A stretch of DNA of 64,000 nt from Patescibacteria group bacterium. GTDB taxonomy: Bacteria > Patescibacteriota > Patescibacteriia > UBA9570 > JAHJKD01. This document shows, piece after piece, positions 7,369 to 45,241 of this stretch. Numbering within the stretch: the first letter of the stretch is position 1; each line of letters begins with the position of its first letter. The notes beneath the pieces are model-generated. The model was not told where the DNA came from, made no database searches, and worked only from the letters and a program-made list of their open reading frames with translations. The position numbers were made by a program, and so were the translations under genes. The stretch spans positions 14,025-78,024 of the forward strand of contig JBAZVM010000002.1 in assembly GCA_041660885.1 (NCBI GenBank), in the 5' to 3' direction.

Positions 7369-9108
7369 CACCTGCAGCCAAACAGGTTCTTGGCTTAAGG
7401 TTATGGCGAATCTATGATTCTCCGCGTTTAAAGATTCGTTACCAGCCAACGAGCGTTTCATTATTTCCGTGGCTGGATCTAAATTTAAATTATAATTGCG
7501 AGTCTGCCCCCGAGTCCAAGCTAAATAATAATTATTTTTTCCTTGAGTATAATTATACAAATACACGCCGCCTAATTTACTGCTTTGCAAATCATCAAAA
7601 TAAACAGATCCATGCTCTCGCGAGCCATCCGGATTATCATCTAGAACAAAAGACTCAAAATAAATGGGATAATCCAAATCGCCATCTTCATTGCCGTTCC
7701 AATGCCCGCTGTAATTTTTCAAATTTATGCGATAATTCACATAACTGCTCGGCAAATATCCGATATTATATTGAAATGTTTCTCCGCTTTTATCTTTAAC
7801 ACGCACTCGTAAAAAAGTGGTGCCGTTGCTGCCTTTAGCTTTAAAACTTAAAGCTTTAGTATAATTTGGCAATTTCAATTCATTATGCACGGGCAAATAA
7901 CTGTTTACCGTACCATTGAAATAATAGTTGATTTTTAACTGGCCATTATACGCTTCCTCTAAATAACCGTCGCTATTAATGGCGCCGGAAAATTCCCAAT
8001 TATTTTTTTTATCGAAATTATCAATCACCGTTGCATTAGCCAGAGAGCTTAACTGATATTTTTTATCGGTTAATTTTTCTTGCATGAATTTAAAGGCGGC
8101 CAAAGCGGGTTTGGCCGTGTAATCATTCCTGGCCAAGCCAAAGCTGGATTCTAAATAGGCAGTGTTATCCGAATCATCGCGGAAAGTATACCAAAATATT
8201 TTTCTGACTTGTGAATTGGCAAACGCGCCGGCATAACCGCGCATTAAATAATCTGTTTGCTTCTCTTCTGAAACACCGTTATCGTAAGTAGTCCAACCGA
8301 ATTCGGTAAGCCAAATAGGCATGTCTTTATCGCCGTTATCGCGCATAACTGCGCGCATACTTTCCAAATCTACCGTAAGCGTATTTAACCCATCTGTCGT
8401 CTGTTCCGGGGAGTAATTAAAATTATCATCCACCACGCGATAAGGATGCGCGGCAACGATGTCGAACGGATCCGTTTCCGGCGTTAATTCATATATTCTG
8501 TTAAGAAAATCGGTGTCAGCGCCAGACATTCCGCCCAACACCACTTTGGCATTGGGATTAGCCTGTTTTATTTTATTGGAAGCTTCTTCCAAATAAGAAA
8601 CATAGTTTTCTTCATTGCTTTTCCAAAAGCCGTCGTAATTCGGCTCGTTCCAAATTTCCCAAGTATCAACTTTACCGGCGTATCGCGCGGCGACATTAGA
8701 AACATAATCGCTCCAGGCTGTCATATCCGGCGGATAATATTCATAATCAGGATCCCCCGCGTTAGAGGATGCCCAGGAAGAACTATAAGTAATGAGCCCA
8801 AGCACTTGGATATTATTTTCTTGATATTTGGTTATGAGCGCATCGTATTGTTCCCAATTGTAATTATCATCAGTCGGTTCTATCACATCCCAATTGAATT
8901 CCTCTCTGGCCCATTCCACATTATTTTCTTCAGCTAAATTTAAAGCCGTATCCCATTCATCCGGAACTACGCGCTGCCTTAAATGCATATTCACGCCAAA
9001 ACCGCCGGAGATGGCTTCACGAGCTTGGGTTAGAACCGGTAAAAGCAAGAACAGAATCACGGAAGCACGGAGGACACGGAGAACATGAAACTTAATTGTT
9101 TTTTTCAT
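7360..9108 (-). CDS. secreted glycoside hydrolase (clan GH-A TIM barrel, GH5/GH39-like) with C-terminal beta-rich domain
   Basis: Signal peptide. WEIWNEPN (acid/base Glu) and IWLTEFGW (nucleophile Glu) motifs. The ~230-aa C-terminal region is non-catalytic. Confidence 0.65.
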   Translation of the reverse strand: MKKTIKFHVLRVLRASVILFLLLPVLTQAREAISGGFGVNMHLRQRVVPDEWDTALNLAEENNVEWAREEFNWDVIEPTDDNYNWEQYDALITKYQENNIQVLGLITYSSSWASSNAGDPDYEYYPPDMTAWSDYVSNVAARYAGKVDTWEIWNEPNYDGFWKSNEENYVSYLEEASNKIKQANPNAKVVLGGMSGADTDFLNRIYELTPETDPFDIVAAHPYRVVDDNFNYSPEQTTDGLNTLTVDLESMRAVMRDNGDKDMPIWLTEFGWTTYDNGVSEEKQTDYLMRGYAGAFANSQVRKIFWYTFRDDSDNTAYLESSFGLARNDYTAKPALAAFKFMQEKLTDKKYQLSSLANATVIDNFDKKNNWEFSGAINSDGYLEEAYNGQLKINYYFNGTVNSYLPVHNELKLPNYTKALSFKAKGSNGTTFLRVRVKDKSGETFQYNIGYLPSSYVNYRINLKNYSGHWNGNEDGDLDYPIYFESFVLDDNPDGSREHGSVYFDDLQSSKLGGVYLYNYTQGKNNYYLAWTRGQTRNYNLNLDPATEIMKRSLAGNESLNAENHRFAITLSQEPVWLQVKK

Positions 9109-10504
9109 TGTAATCTCTTAAAAATTCTCTATTTTCTTTCATTTTATTTCTCGCTTCTTTTTCCGTCATCTTTTTTATATCGGCGATTATTTTCTTGGCT
9201 TGCGCGAATAAATATTCTTCGGTATTTTTCTTGGGATCGTCTAATACTTCTTCCAACAACAGATGCATGACAATGCCGATCTTGGCGCCGGGCTTCATTT
9301 TAAATTCCTTCTGTAAAATATTGCCGTCTATTTTTAGCATACGCGTATCAATCGGGTCCTTTTGCACTTTTATCATGCGCCGCTCAAGTTCTTCCAACTT
9401 ATAGGGCTTGTCCTTTTGGCAGCCGGAACCCATTCTATCCGCGATGCGTAAGTCTATCAGGTTCTTTAAGTTCTCATTGCCCACACGGCGGATCAAACGC
9501 CGCACCCCGGCATCGGTAATCTCGCCAATGTTATAATAAAACATGTGATTCTTTACCAAATGCGCTACCATGGCGATCTCGTCATTGGAAAACTTTAGCC
9601 GGCGCATTATCTGCTTGGTAAATTTCACGCCCAAGTGCTCGTGATTGTAAAAGGTGGCGTCTGCGCCTTCTCCTCCTTTGGTTTGCGGCTTGGCAATATC
9701 GTGCAAAAAGGCGGCCAAACGCACCAAGGGATCATCAGAAGGACAAAATTGCACGGAAAGCAAGCTATGATAATAAACCGAATACATATGATGCTTATTC
9801 TGCATCACGCCTACTGTTTTTTCCAGTTCCGGCAGTATTATTTTTTGTATGCCCGATTCTTTAAGCAGCCACAACCCTCTAAAAGAGTCGTCGGCTTTAA
9901 GAATTTTCATTAATTCATCGCGCACTCTTTCGCTGGATATTTTCTTTATATTATTTTTATTTTTAATTATCGCTTGCCAGGTTTTTTTCTCTATTTGAAA
10001 GTCCAGCTGAGCCGCGAAACGAATGGCGCGCATCATTCTTAACGCGTCTTCGTTGAATCTGTCTTCGGCCTTGCCCACGCAGCGGATTATTCTGGCTTCC
10101 AAATCTTTTTGGCCTTTAAATTTATCCACGGTTTTGTTGCCATCAAAAGCCAGGGCATTAATAGTGAAATCCCTACGCTTTAAATCTTCTTCTAAACTTA
10201 CTCCAAATTTAATTTTATCCGGGTGACGCTTATCCGTGTATTTGGCTTCACTGCGATAAGTGGTGACTTCGATAGTATCACCTTCTACTATTACTCCGAC
10301 TGTACCAAAAGAGTTATTATAAAAAGAATTTAGAAATATTTTCTGAATATCTTTTGGCAAAGCATTAGTTGTTACATCCCAATCTTTCGGTTCATTGCCA
10401 ATTAGCAAGTCTCTTAAGCATCCGCCAACGATAAAAGCTTCAAAGTTGTTGGCTTTGAGCTGGTTTAAGACAAACACGATATTTTCCGGTAATTTGATAA
10501 TCAT
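9092..10504 (-). CDS. cca: CCA-adding tRNA nucleotidyltransferase with HD domain
   Basis: GGCLRDLLIG...DWD nucleotidyltransferase motif, RDFTINA, and an HD domain (FLHDIAKP). 470 aa. Confidence 0.85.
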   Translation of the reverse strand: MIIKLPENIVFVLNQLKANNFEAFIVGGCLRDLLIGNEPKDWDVTTNALPKDIQKIFLNSFYNNSFGTVGVIVEGDTIEVTTYRSEAKYTDKRHPDKIKFGVSLEEDLKRRDFTINALAFDGNKTVDKFKGQKDLEARIIRCVGKAEDRFNEDALRMMRAIRFAAQLDFQIEKKTWQAIIKNKNNIKKISSERVRDELMKILKADDSFRGLWLLKESGIQKIILPELEKTVGVMQNKHHMYSVYYHSLLSVQFCPSDDPLVRLAAFLHDIAKPQTKGGEGADATFYNHEHLGVKFTKQIMRRLKFSNDEIAMVAHLVKNHMFYYNIGEITDAGVRRLIRRVGNENLKNLIDLRIADRMGSGCQKDKPYKLEELERRMIKVQKDPIDTRMLKIDGNILQKEFKMKPGAKIGIVMHLLLEEVLDDPKKNTEEYLFAQAKKIIADIKKMTEKEARNKMKENREFLRDYNEKNN

Positions 10505-10547: not shown

Positions 10548-10576
10548 TTGACTAGTCAAGTAATATTTGTTAGACT
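10548..10576 (+). promoter_or_regulatory. sigma70-like promoter of the tRNA-Arg/Met/His operon
   Basis: TTGACT (10548-10553), a 17-nt spacer, then TAGACT (10571-10576). It lies about 25 nt upstream of the leader element. Confidence 0.45.
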
Positions 10577-10598: not shown

Positions 10599-10724
10599 GC
10601 CCTCGTAGTTATCTGCTCCGCTTTCACTCGCGTTCAAGCTTCGCAGGATTAAACGGATAAGTATTTGGGTATGTTCCTTCGAAGCCTCGCAGATATGCGA
10701 GGCGAAGAAGAAGCCCTCGTAGTT
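10599..10724 (+). repeat. tRNA-5'-associated structured element, copy 1 (102 nt, 10611-10712), flanked by a 12-nt direct repeat
   Basis: gccctcgtagtt occurs at 10599-10610 and again at 10713-10724, where it forms tRNA-Arg nt 1-12. The interior is homologous to 44954-45058. Confidence 0.7.
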
Positions 10725-10787
10725 CAACGGATAGAACATCAGCCTTCTAAGCCGATGATTGAGGTCCGACTCCTCACGAGGGCACCA
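10713..10787 (+). tRNA. tRNA-Arg(TCT), CCA encoded
   Basis: Manual cloverleaf: acceptor gccctcg/cgagggc, D arm gttc..gaac, anticodon loop cTTCTAa, T arm tgagg-tccgact-cctca, then ACCA. Confidence 0.85.
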
Positions 10788-10788
10788 G

Positions 10789-10862
10789 GGCAGGGTAGCT
10801 CAGTTGGTTAGAGCACGGGACTCATAAGCCCGGTGTCGAGAGTTCGAATCTCTCCCCTGCTA
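10789..10862 (+). tRNA. tRNA with CAT anticodon (elongator Met, or Ile2 if lysidinylated)
   Basis: Acceptor ggcaggg/ccctgct (G1-U72, so not an initiator), D arm gctc..gagc, anticodon loop cTCATAa, T arm gagag-ttcgaat-ctctc. Confidence 0.8.
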
Positions 10863-10880
10863 CGGACAAACAGTCCACAT

Positions 10881-10953
10881 GGTGGCCATGGTGAAGCGGT
10901 TATCACACGACTCTGTGGCAGTCGTATCACGGGTTCAATTCCCGTTGGCCACC
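10881..10953 (+). tRNA. tRNA-His(GTG) with genome-encoded G-1
   Basis: An extra 5' G opposite discriminator C, acceptor gtggcca/tggccac, anticodon loop cTGTGgc, T arm acggg-ttcaatt-cccgt. Confidence 0.85.
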
Positions 10954-10967
10954 CCCTTTTACAAAAA

Positions 10968-10992
10968 ACAGGGGGCTAATCCCTGTTTTTTT
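10968..10992 (+). terminator. rho-independent terminator after the tRNA cluster
   Basis: caggg-ggctaat-ccctg followed by TTTTTTT. Confidence 0.55.
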
Positions 10993-43976: not shown

Positions 43977-44954
43977 ATGAGATTATACTTTAAGGCATTG
44001 TCCGATGGCTGGAAACTGACTAGCAAACATACTTGGCTTTGGTTTTTCGGCTTGTTCGCCCTGTTTATCGTGGGCAATGGCGGAGAATTCGATTTGTATT
44101 TTAAAAACGTCGGCCGGCTTTCCGGAAACAACTCAATTTTCAGTGCCGCTTTCTGGCAGCAAGGAGAATGGGTGGAAATAATTAATCGCTTGCAATCGTT
44201 ATGGACGGAAAACTGGATAATGACATTATTCATGGCTGGCATTTTTGTTGCCGCTTTATTATTTGTTCTGTATTTTGTTGTTATTTCTCAAATTGCCTTA
44301 ATCTACGCCGCCAATCAAGGGCAAAAAAGTAGTTTATCTTTTCATCAATGCATCGTGGCGGGCAATAAATTTTTCTGGCGCGCTTTAATTATCAACATAA
44401 TCAGCAAACTGATCGTAATAGCCGTTCTTTTAATTATAGCCATACCATTATTTTTCTTATTAAGCAGCGGTACTTATGAAGCCACTTATTCCATTTTGGC
44501 CTCGATATTATTAATACCGGCCGTGATTATCGTTTCTTTTTTAAACAAATACGCGATTAACTACGCGGTGATTGATAATGAAAAAATATTTCCGGCCATA
44601 AAAAAAGCGTTTAAACTATTCGGCCAGAATTGGCTGGTCAGCTTGGAAATGGCCCTGATAATTTTCATTCTTTCCCTTTTACTCGGCTTATTTATTCTGG
44701 CGGCCACGGCCATTGTATTGGCTCCTTTCTTGGCTTCATCCATCTCCACGGCTTCGGCTTATGCCGACCCGCTAGCGAATATTTTAACCGTGTTAATGCT
44801 GGCCGCGCTGGTATTAATCGTTGGCATGGTCTTAGCTGCCTCCATATTTTCCGCTTGGCAATTAACTTCTTGGACATACCTGTTTAAGGAATTGACTGCA
44901 GGGCCGAAAGAAGGTAAGCTAATACGCGTCTTGAATGGAAAAAGGGGCATATAA
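43977..44954 (+). CDS. hypothetical polytopic membrane protein
   Basis: 325 aa with at least 6 hydrophobic helices. Its last codons and stop overlap the left direct repeat of the tRNA-associated element. Confidence 0.5.
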   Translation: MRLYFKALSDGWKLTSKHTWLWFFGLFALFIVGNGGEFDLYFKNVGRLSGNNSIFSAAFWQQGEWVEIINRLQSLWTENWIMTLFMAGIFVAALLFVLYFVVISQIALIYAANQGQKSSLSFHQCIVAGNKFFWRALIINIISKLIVIAVLLIIAIPLFFLLSSGTYEATYSILASILLIPAVIIVSFLNKYAINYAVIDNEKIFPAIKKAFKLFGQNWLVSLEMALIIFILSLLLGLFILAATAIVLAPFLASSISTASAYADPLANILTVLMLAALVLIVGMVLAASIFSAWQLTSWTYLFKELTAGPKEGKLIRVLNGKRGI

Positions 44955-45067
44955 TCTGCTTCGCTCCTTACTACGTTCGGAGCTTCGCAGGATCAAGTCT
45001 ATTTATTTAGGCCTAGCTCCTGCGAAGCCCTGATCCAAAGGATCATGGGCGAAGCAGAGGGCATATA
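44945..45067 (+). repeat. tRNA-5'-associated structured element, copy 2 (105 nt, 44954-45058), flanked by a 9-nt direct repeat
   Basis: gggcatata occurs at 44945-44953 and again at 45059-45067, where it forms tRNA-Ile nt 1-9. Perfect 9-bp terminal inverted pairing ctgcttcgc/gcgaagcag. Homologous to 10611-10712. Confidence 0.7.
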
Positions 45068-45132
45068 GCTCAGTCGGTTAGAGCACAGCCCTTATAAGGC
45101 TGGGGTCCCTGGTTCGAGTCCAGGTATGCCCA
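45059..45132 (+). tRNA. tRNA-Ile(TAT)
   Basis: Acceptor gggcata/tatgccc, D arm gctc..gagc, anticodon stem cagcc/ggctg with loop cTTATAa, T arm cctgg-ttcgagt-ccagg. No encoded CCA. Confidence 0.85.
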
Positions 45133-45241
45133 CTGAAATATAACTTAAAATAGAATATTAACCACTCTTTTATTTCTAGTTAGATGGAACACTTCTTTTT
45201 GATTTACTTGTAGTAGATTCCCTGCCAGATACTTTAAAACA

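Follow-up and report, generated by a model that had tools for sequence, protein, structure and literature searches.

A miniature element between duplicated tRNA ends in a Patescibacteria genome, probably a non-autonomous member of a GIY-YIG-associated mobile family

Introduction

Why would the first 12 nucleotides of a tRNA gene be present twice, on both sides of a 102-nt segment that stops exactly where the tRNA begins? This arrangement is found in front of tRNA-Arg in a stretch of 64,000 nucleotides, referred to here as the window, from a Patescibacteria group bacterium (GenBank assembly GCA_041660885.1, contig JBAZVM010000002.1, positions 14,025 to 78,024). A preliminary description had reported the repeats, this segment and a related one of 105 nt bracketed by 9 nt before tRNA-Ile (44954-45058), the blocks that both share, and the promoter at 10548-10576, and all these statements on the sequence hold. 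For their interpretation it had hesitated between a functional structured RNA, possibly self-cleaving or intron-like, and a transposable element of the miniature inverted-repeat type (MITE) that targets tRNA 5' ends. The analysis presented here indicates that the segment is quite probably a non-autonomous, MITE-like member of a mobile family that targets tRNA boundaries and is associated with a gene for a small GIY-YIG nuclease. The evidence comes from orthologous sites that lack the segment, from the recurrence of its architecture at tRNA ends in several phyla, and from relatives that enclose the nuclease gene.

Results

An insertion in front of tRNA-Arg

The sequence GCCCTCGTAGTT, nucleotides 1-12 of tRNA-Arg, occurs exactly at 10599-10610 and at 10713-10724, with 114 nt from start to start and 102 nt bracketed. 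The chance expectation for an exact 12-mer repeat within about 130 nt is about 1e-5, and the family described below recurs at tRNA ends in dozens of unrelated genomes; the flanked segment before tRNA-Arg is therefore far beyond chance. The locus is composed as follows.

10548..10576, + strand: sigma-70-like promoter, TTGACT-17-TAGACT, which drives the tRNA-Arg/Met/His operon
10599..10610, + strand: left copy of the 12-nt target-site duplication, GCCCTCGTAGTT, identical to tRNA-Arg nt 1-12
10611..10712, no strand assigned: element copy 1, 102 nt, without open reading frame (ORF), delimited by block parsing, folds and ortholog comparison
10612-10621: block u1, TCTGCTCCGC, which together with a preceding A forms the left end
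10622-10637: hairpin 1
10638-10648: block u2, GCTTCGCAGGA
10649-10674: central loop
10675-10685: block u4, TCCTTCGAAGC
10686-10701: hairpin 2, CTCGCAGATATGCGAG
10702-10712: block u5, GCGAAGAAGAA
10713..10787, + strand: tRNA-Arg(TCT), intact, its first 12 nt being the right copy of the duplication (ARAGORN; Rfam, 63.2 bits)
10789..10956, + strand: tRNA-Met(CAT) and tRNA-His(GTG), co-transcribed downstream
10963-10991: terminator-like hairpin after tRNA-His

Copy 1 lies inside the transcribed leader of the operon, which from the promoter onwards and with the element included measures 129 nt. Its terminal inverted repeats (TIRs) match at 8 of 10 positions.

Empty sites were located via protein orthologs. 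The tRNA-Arg site could be compared at three loci, L127, L128 and L130, whose CCA-adding-enzyme orthologs show 88%, 82% and 75% identity, respectively. At all three the same promoter, with the hexamers TTGACT/TAGACT invariant, is followed by a short leader and then directly by tRNA-Arg +1, with no element there. With respect to them the window carries exactly 114 extra nucleotides, the sum of the 12-nt repeat and the 102-nt element, and it is the left copy of the duplication that the empty sites lack. Because orthologous sites are found empty in some genomes and filled in another, the comparison indicates that the 102-nt segment is a genuine insertion with flanking duplication. Locus L128 has an element of the same family between tRNA-Arg and tRNA-Met, where a sister lineage seems to have received its own insertion.

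The second copy, in front of tRNA-Ile

The sequence GGGCATATA stands at 44945-44953 and again at 45059-45067, also with 114 nt from start to start, and brackets 105 nt.

44945..44953, + strand: left copy of the 9-nt duplication, GGGCATATA, identical to tRNA-Ile nt 1-9
44954..45058, no strand assigned: element copy 2, 105 nt, without ORF, delimited by block parsing and fold
44955-44964: block u1, TCTGCTTCGC
44965-44981: hairpin 1
44982-44992: block u2
44993-45017: central loop
45018-45028: block u4, TCCTGCGAAGC
45029-45048: hairpin 2
45049-45058: block u5, GCGAAGCAGA
45059..45133, + strand: tRNA-Ile(TAT), intact, its first 9 nt being the right copy of the duplication (ARAGORN; Rfam, 75.3 bits)

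The TIRs of copy 2, TCTGCTTCGC and GCGAAGCAGA, match at all 10 positions. Both copies have the same succession of blocks: u1, (A)TCTGCT(C/T)CGC, then hairpin 1, u2 (GCTTCGCAGGA) and a central loop of 25-26 nt, followed in the right half by u4, TCCT(T/G)CGAAGC, a hairpin 2 of unrelated sequence, and u5, GCGAAG(A/C)AGA(A). Column identity is 77% over the aligned regions and 75% for the element only, so that a recent segmental duplication, which the preliminary description had considered, does not apply. Two is the number of copies in the 64-kb window, where no third copy or solo block was found. None of the other window tRNAs has a duplicate of its own end beside it (8 tRNAs checked).

The tRNA-Ile site, recognised by the order FtsH, 325-aa ORF, tRNA-Ile, is empty at locus L112. 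At L111 it holds a same-family copy of 100 nt with a 13/14-nt repeat, GGGCGCATAGCTC(A). At L115 it is occupied by a 460-bp element with perfect 10-bp TIRs, of a type absent from the 64-kb window, which encodes an 86-aa GIY-YIG ORF and is flanked by an 11-nt repeat, GGGCATATAGC. When the ends of this element are joined, the fold reproduces the layout of the miniatures (closing stem, long central stem and hairpin), and the ORF occupies the position of their central loop.

A family tied to tRNA ends in several phyla

Further copies were sought with a strict core scan, GCTTCGCAGGA-N15-45-TCCTNCGAAGC, of GTDB representatives, one genome per species. The search for more copies that the preliminary description had recommended thus yielded 107 loci with the core pattern; some of them are chance palindromes and many have the full four-block architecture. 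The consensus of the blocks, each of 10-12 nt, is (T)TCT-N-CTTCGC / GCTTCG-N'-AGGA / TCCT-N-CGAAGC / GCGAAG-N'-AGAA, and between them the four blocks hold a central loop and two hairpins whose sequence is free. Besides the Patescibacteria window, the hosts belong to Omnitrophota, Planctomycetota, Elusimicrobiota, Verrucomicrobiota and Alphaproteobacteria, and cultured hosts include Brevundimonas, Mesorhizobium, Bradyrhizobium and Phenylobacterium. Within a genome the copies are 74-95% identical, with at least 5 in the metagenome-assembled genome (MAG) JADHYM01 and 4 in MHGR01. Elements stand in both orientations with respect to the tRNA and on either side of it, and also at intergenic sites without tRNA.

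A tRNA end lies within about 1 nt in 20 of 46 distinct complete elements, where chance would give 0.2% per element. Of these abutting copies 18 are at the tRNA 3' end, the two at the 5' end being those of the window. Not every copy adjoins tRNA position +1, a point that the preliminary description had proposed to check, and in the family at large the 3' end is the preferred target; the MITE character, the inverted repeats and the duplications assigned to the segment are essentially borne out by the empty sites, the further copies and the autonomous relatives. Insertion at the 5' end has so far been seen only at Patescibacteria loci (the window, L111, and the GIY-YIG elements of L115 and L121).

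The flanking repeat follows the target. Next to tRNAs without encoded CCA, 12-14 nt of the 3' end are repeated beyond the element (L008, L039, L085, L094), and at L018 a 15-nt repeat of the tRNA 3' end flanks the unit. Where CCA is encoded, the element begins right after it, and CCA, CA or CTA is found behind the element. Since the repeat corresponds in every case to the tRNA at hand, with over 15 tRNA species represented, it is not borne by the element.

Two groups of copies deserve a separate mention. A subfamily flanked by TA (TA|TTCT...AGAA|TA), from Planctomycetota and Omnitrophota WOR_2, is not beside tRNAs (L023, L042, L047, L052, L054, L058, L064, L072, L074, L075, L086); the flanks could be a TA duplication or merely a longer inverted repeat, TA being its own reverse complement. 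The order tRNA-CCA followed by the element is present in cultured isolates, namely Brevundimonas lenta DSM 23960, Mesorhizobium shonense DSM 29846 and Bradyrhizobium hipponense (cultured alphaproteobacterial loci: L030, L036, L041, L046, L105). Alphaproteobacterial MAG loci add a GIY-YIG ORF (L021, L037, L043, L082, L095, L100), and no clear flanking repeat was found at these six; the alphaproteobacterial copies may be old or domesticated.

The GIY-YIG partner gene

A protein of about 80 aa (MFYVYLIES...YLKSGSGHAFAKKRLW) is encoded in 19 family loci. It matches Pfam PF01541 (GIY-YIG) with E = 4.5e-14, and its nearest solved structures are UPF0213 BH0048 (PDB 1zg2, E = 4.6e-6) and SLX1 (7wme, E = 5.8e-5); by these matches the partner ORF is a GIY-YIG domain closest to the Slx1-like/UPF0213 branch. 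In full-length relatives the ORF measures about 80-90 aa and is placed in the central loop or just behind the last block. The element core is at most 130 nt upstream of the ORF at 17 of the 19 loci, and the order tRNA, element, ORF is seen at 13. Judged from these sequences, the family spans multiple phyla and is strongly tied both to tRNA ends and to the GIY-YIG ORF.

The clearest case comes from an Omnitrophota MAG (L024:1416-1794), with the order u1, hairpin 1, u2, 80-aa GIY-YIG ORF, u3, u4, hairpin 2, u5, the whole flanked by a 16-nt repeat, CCCGTCGTCCCCGCCA. Four ORF-less copies from the same MAG align to both ends of this unit, about 270 nt including the ORF being deleted from them. The alignments indicate that the miniatures arose by loss of the ORF from an autonomous copy within their own genome, the relation in which MITEs classically stand to an autonomous element. 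At L018, a second element copy comes behind the unit of element and ORF that the repeat of the tRNA-His 3' end flanks. At L073 (5640-6554) an element and its GIY-YIG ORF lie just upstream of the tmRNA gene (Rfam RF00023, 6141-6554) and are flanked by a 35-nt repeat of internal tmRNA sequence, with a further mini-hairpin unit upstream; tmRNA is therefore also a target.

Other Patescibacteria GIY-YIG genes, homologs of the L115 ORF, are likewise at tRNA 5' ends with partial tRNA copies of 18-33 nt (L121/L123, the loci of Portnoybacteria). At L121:1434-2168 (Candidatus Portnoybacteria, GCA_016208745.1) two tandem GIY-YIG ORFs adjoin the 5' end of tRNA-Cys, each preceded by a partial copy of its 5' part, one of 18-24 nt and near-exact, the other of about 33 nt and diverged. 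Of the two, it is the inner copy, supposed to be the younger, that has diverged further; this hints at its arrival together with the element through homing from a different genome. Elsewhere, the GIY-YIG gene of L117 is located between two tRNA-Ser genes, and L124/L126 have perfect 19-bp TIRs.

In the loci scanned for larger enclosed ORFs, no transposase bounded by family termini was identified: the termini enclose GIY-YIG ORFs, or else they belong to pairs of separate elements with unrelated ORFs in between. The element matches none of the known MITEs that derive from an insertion sequence (IS), and its partner gene codes for a small GIY-YIG nuclease, not for any known transposase of the IS kind.

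Fold of the element: DNA or RNA

Pairing of u1 with u5 and of u2 with u4 folds both window copies into a four-way structure that resembles a cloverleaf. The predicted energy for copy 2 is -53.8 kcal/mol, and -53.7 for its reverse complement, with z = -7.2 on either strand. The variable hairpins have a mean of 4.2 consecutive basal pairs versus 0.64 in shuffles. Over about 790 pairs in 92 distinct arms, G·U pairs number 37 on one strand and 38 on the other. Rfam returned only tRNA, tmRNA and RNase P; no match to the element was obtained in the whole window at gathering score, at the locus at E ≤ 10 or in 15 related loci, in agreement with the first impression that no Rfam family is recognisable. 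The unrelated but paired hairpins of the two copies had been taken as covariation of a functional RNA; Watson-Crick complementarity is, however, equal on both strands. Hence, because pairing is strand-symmetric, no Rfam family matches, both orientations and both sides of the tRNA are used and copies exist away from tRNAs, the element is best read from its sequence as a palindrome signature at the DNA level and not as a strand-specific functional RNA.

Energy minimisation (RNAfold, RNAalifold) prefers the cloverleaf, as does, by eye, the distinction between outer TTCT/AGAA and inner TCCT/AGGA; the variable position N favours two side-by-side hairpins instead. Both folds may be used. In the predicted fold of the precursor the acceptor 3' strand pairs with the proximal copy, i.e. 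with the true 5' end of the tRNA, so that the suggestion that the upstream repeat could compete for it is not supported.

The heptamer GCGAAGC and the frequent hairpin apex GCGAAAGC are classic, extraordinarily stable mini-hairpins of single-stranded DNA. Examples are found in the window (45021-45027, 45049-45055), at L024:7419-7426 and at L117:1462-1468. In L117 a GCGAAGC-tipped hairpin precedes the otherwise unrelated GIY-YIG gene, and in L121 a hairpin ahead of the first GIY-YIG ORF has the complement, GCTTCGC, at its tip.

Discussion

A possible route of insertion

The window element is short (below about 600 bp) and without gene, has TIRs and a target-site duplication, and is accompanied by empty sites and dispersed copies, as MITEs are; a repeat whose length is not fixed across the family is atypical for them. 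Its history could be pictured as follows. A GIY-YIG nuclease, supplied in trans for the miniatures, would make staggered nicks in the two strands near the acceptor-stem base, one at the boundary of the tRNA and one within the gene, 9-16 nt away (2-4 nt where the tRNA ends in CCA). Recognition by the nuclease, and presentation of the element ends to it, would rest on the structure formed by the hairpins and nested inverted repeats. Once the element is joined in, gap repair would leave the repeat and an intact tRNA, so that duplication of the tRNA end would regenerate the gene beside the element. In this way the genome would have gained a copy at +1 of tRNA-Arg and a further one at +1 of tRNA-Ile. 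A tRNA end would be a safe harbour, where insertion is tolerated, transcription is strong and RNase P or RNase Z trims the RNA of the element; in the window this RNA would form part of the 5' leader until RNase P cuts it off.

We hold it about as likely as not that insertion is driven by the GIY-YIG nuclease itself. Branched DNA is a substrate of SLX1 relatives, and the base of the acceptor stem holds the two target positions (nt 0/+1, nt 73/74); by analogy, it is an attractive idea that the nuclease might recognise the extruded cloverleaf of the tRNA gene by its structure. A more far-reaching proposal, which we make tentatively and with somewhat less than even confidence, is that of a hitherto unknown class of mobile DNA in prokaryotes whose mover would be a minimal, stand-alone SLX1-like GIY-YIG nuclease, which would recognise DNA structure, nick with variable stagger and insert at either end of tRNA or tmRNA genes. 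The structures recognised would then be the acceptor-stem base of the extruded tRNA cloverleaf and the cloverleaf-like or twin-hairpin fold of the element.

Several observations weigh against the preferred reading and these proposals. Of the family copies, about half lie away from tRNAs, and the 64-kb window has no GIY-YIG homolog by tblastn. The flanking repeat is 2-4 nt long at many CCA-ending tRNAs, 9-18 elsewhere and up to 33-35 in L121 and L073; with a classical transposase the length would be fixed. Being hydrolytic nucleases, GIY-YIG enzymes are not known to have strand-transfer activity. Given this and the variable repeat, the chemistry of insertion may be nick-and-repair, homing via the duplicated tRNA segment, or a process helped by host factors. 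At only 75% identity the window copies must be old, and blocks conserved across phyla imply a constraint unlike that of a purely dead relic. Finally, the variable base N is Watson-Crick paired between u1 and u2 in 48/51 elements and between u4 and u5 in 46/51, with all four pair types, among family members from loci L005-L103 and the window. This covariation suggests that some single-stranded hairpin form, of DNA or RNA, is under selection, and an RNA role for it may exist. In the cloverleaf pairing, N is Watson-Crick in only 4/51 (u1:u5) and 3/51 (u2:u4), below the approximately 25% expected by chance; the pattern is as if the two arms were kept distinguishable.

Other explanations

A functional structured RNA, be it a leader or trailer small RNA, a regulator of tRNA maturation or a module that stabilises or processes the GIY-YIG mRNA, would account for an element that stands in a transcribed leader behind a conserved promoter and abuts mature tRNA ends exactly, where RNase P or RNase Z would release defined ends. 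Compensatory changes in the hairpins, apical loops that are often GAAA or GNRA-like on one strand, and blocks kept across phyla would also be expected. Yet close relatives do without the element at both window sites with the operon otherwise unchanged, folding energy and G·U content are equal on the two strands (37 vs 38), the copies are placed in both orientations, on either tRNA side and at intergenic sites without tRNA, no Rfam model matches, and the predicted precursor keeps its acceptor stem with the proximal strand. We consider this explanation, favoured at first, unlikely. Its more specific form, a ribozyme or intron-like RNA that cuts itself, along with one copy of the repeat, out of the precursor of the tRNA, is very unlikely: only the compact multi-stem fold beside a tRNA and the flanking direct repeats speak for it, while no ribozyme or intron model matches at E ≤ 10, the conserved nucleotides are paired blocks and not a single-stranded catalytic core, and the element is strand-symmetric. 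Moreover, it lies outside the mature tRNA, so that splicing is unneeded, and its ORF-bearing relatives are plainly DNA elements with flanking duplications.

If the segment is mobile DNA, as we prefer to read it, its mover could still be an ordinary transposase encoded elsewhere (e.g. DDE, IS630/Tc1-like), with the GIY-YIG gene as passenger or independent homing gene. The TA-flanked subfamily away from tRNAs recalls the TA-duplicating MITEs of IS630/mariner, and GIY-YIG nucleases are without known transposase activity. Nevertheless, the larger ORFs enclosed by family termini included no identified transposase, the nuclease ORF is inside the element's own inverted repeats in L024 and L115 and element-linked at 17 of 19 loci, and duplications of variable length are unlike those of DDE elements, which makes a conventional MITE quite unlikely. 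Barely conceivable is an immobile remnant, palindromic by accident, that goes back to a local event at tRNA genes (duplication or recombination) or to the attachment site of an integrase. Transfer RNA genes are classical integration sites and direct repeats of their ends flank integrated islands; here, however, no integrase is present, the element is only about 100 nt, the repeat matches whichever of more than 15 tRNA species is local, some genomes hold at least 5 dispersed copies of 74-95% identity, and presence and absence at orthologous sites are clean.

Relation to known systems

The preferred reading, a GIY-YIG-associated family at tRNA boundaries, shares traits with several systems. With bacterial MITEs (Correia/NEMIS, ERIC, RUP, MITEAba12) it has in common the small non-coding unit with TIRs and target duplication, the many dispersed copies, an origin by internal deletion from an ORF-bearing element, and frequent co-transcription with neighbours. 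It differs from them in its stand-alone GIY-YIG nuclease, which replaces a DDE, serine or HUH transposase, in the tRNA-boundary target with variable duplication (2-4, 9-18 and up to about 35 nt), and in nested inverted repeats with two internal hairpins instead of simple TIRs. REP/REPIN sequences with their IS200/IS605-like HUH partner RAYT resemble it as dispersed extragenic doublets of inverted hairpins, with compensatory hairpin changes and a small single-copy nuclease-type gene flanked by the repeats. REPINs, however, are without target duplication or tRNA-end preference, sequence similarity is lacking, and the enzyme folds differ (GIY-YIG here, HUH Y1 there). Membership in REPIN/RAYT was rejected, the associated ORF being PF01541 and the blocks differing from the GTAG-type tetranucleotide.

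Free-standing GIY-YIG homing genes (phage T4 Seg, I-TevI family) also have a nuclease gene as selfish core, insert beside conserved genes, including T4 tRNA regions, and spread between genomes. They possess added DNA-binding domains and spread by recombination with neither target duplication nor inverted repeats, whereas here minimal domains of about 80 aa go together with structured ends, flanking duplications and ORF-less derivatives. A homing-endonuclease cassette was discarded for the window copies, which have no ORF and belong to a family with 9-18-nt flanking duplications at many tRNA species. A tyrosine-integrase element was discarded as well: there is no integrase, the repeat matches the local tRNA, and in the window the tRNA 5' end is used.

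The use of multicopy small-RNA genes as safe harbours has parallels in the Dada DNA transposons (PMC3706591), Dictyostelium TRE and yeast Ty3, eukaryotic elements that target tRNA genes, and in Penelope-like elements a GIY-YIG endonuclease opens the target (PMC8557442). All of these are eukaryotic and depend on DDE transposases or reverse transcriptases, neither of which is found here. The closest relatives of the associated ORF are SLX1 and UPF0213/COG2827; SLX1 cuts branched and four-way DNA, which the element and the tRNA gene could extrude. A review of the GIY-YIG superfamily treats prokaryotic stand-alone Slx1-like proteins as vertically inherited repair factors (PMC1564403), and a Caulobacter survey lists three such small GIY-YIG genes whose role is unknown (PMC1839093). 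Full-text search, in which most subscription journals are not covered, turned up no account of GIY-YIG elements or miniatures aimed at tRNA ends, nor any report placing such proteins in mobile elements, and GCTTCGCAGGA as an exact word retrieved only unrelated primers. The family is apparently previously undescribed.

Orphan stand-alone Slx1-like GIY-YIG nucleases, assumed to be repair enzymes, are now linked to a mobile element of tRNA boundaries. Should the nuclease be the mobilising enzyme, a mode of transposition or homing without known transposase and a bacterial case of safe-harbour targeting at tRNA ends would follow, and UPF0213/COG2827 would gain a selfish function directed to tRNA boundaries in at least 6 phyla. 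The cultured alphaproteobacterial isolates of Brevundimonas, Mesorhizobium and Bradyrhizobium, in which tRNA, element and GIY-YIG gene are found in this arrangement, are tractable experimental hosts. For annotation, the elements inflate tRNA leaders and trailers, create pseudo-tRNA fragments and can supply stop codons to neighbouring genes. The latter is seen in the 325-aa ORF behind FtsH (43977-44954, + strand), which ends ...GKRGI* with its last codons inside the duplicated tRNA-Ile fragment. Its TAA stop (44952-44954) joins the last two bases of the 9-nt repeat to the A with which the element starts; had the insertion not occurred, the reading frame would end at a TAG within tRNA-Ile (nt 8-10).

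Minor observations

In copy 1 the stretch TTAAACGGATA of the central loop (10649-10659) is a direct match, at 10 of 11 positions, to nt 11-21 of tRNA-Arg (TTCAACGGATA, 10723-10733), the part right behind the 12-nt duplication, and is an outlier with respect to control tRNAs (z = 3.6). A guide-like central loop derived from the neighbouring tRNA was rejected as a general rule, the mean z over 23 elements being 0.3; among these the resemblance stands out only in copy 1 and L039. Hairpin 2 was compared with the neighbouring tRNA by eye only.

When metagenomes were scanned for the tRNA-Arg 5' sequence, the only matches were the contig of the window itself and an unrelated tRNA-Arg(CCG). An unrelated metagenomic tRNA-Arg(CCG) (L110:625-640) has directly before it GGCGAAGC, a sequence similar to the element's last block, which could be a footprint or chance. 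In L128 (840-1060) there is also a 32-nt palindrome between tRNA-Met and tRNA-His, and L130 (405-1060) has a 195-aa ORF with no Pfam match between tRNA-Arg and tRNA-Met. In L127:1-27, at the contig end, the CCA of tRNA-Arg is followed by TTCGACTCGTCGCTTCGCTCC... and not by tRNA-Met, which could be the start of another insertion. The gene for the CCA-adding enzyme (9092-10504, - strand) is divergent from the Arg-Met-His operon and adjoins it; CCA is encoded in tRNA-Arg and absent from 7 of the 8 window tRNA genes. For isoleucine the genome uses a tRNA with the anticodon TAT.

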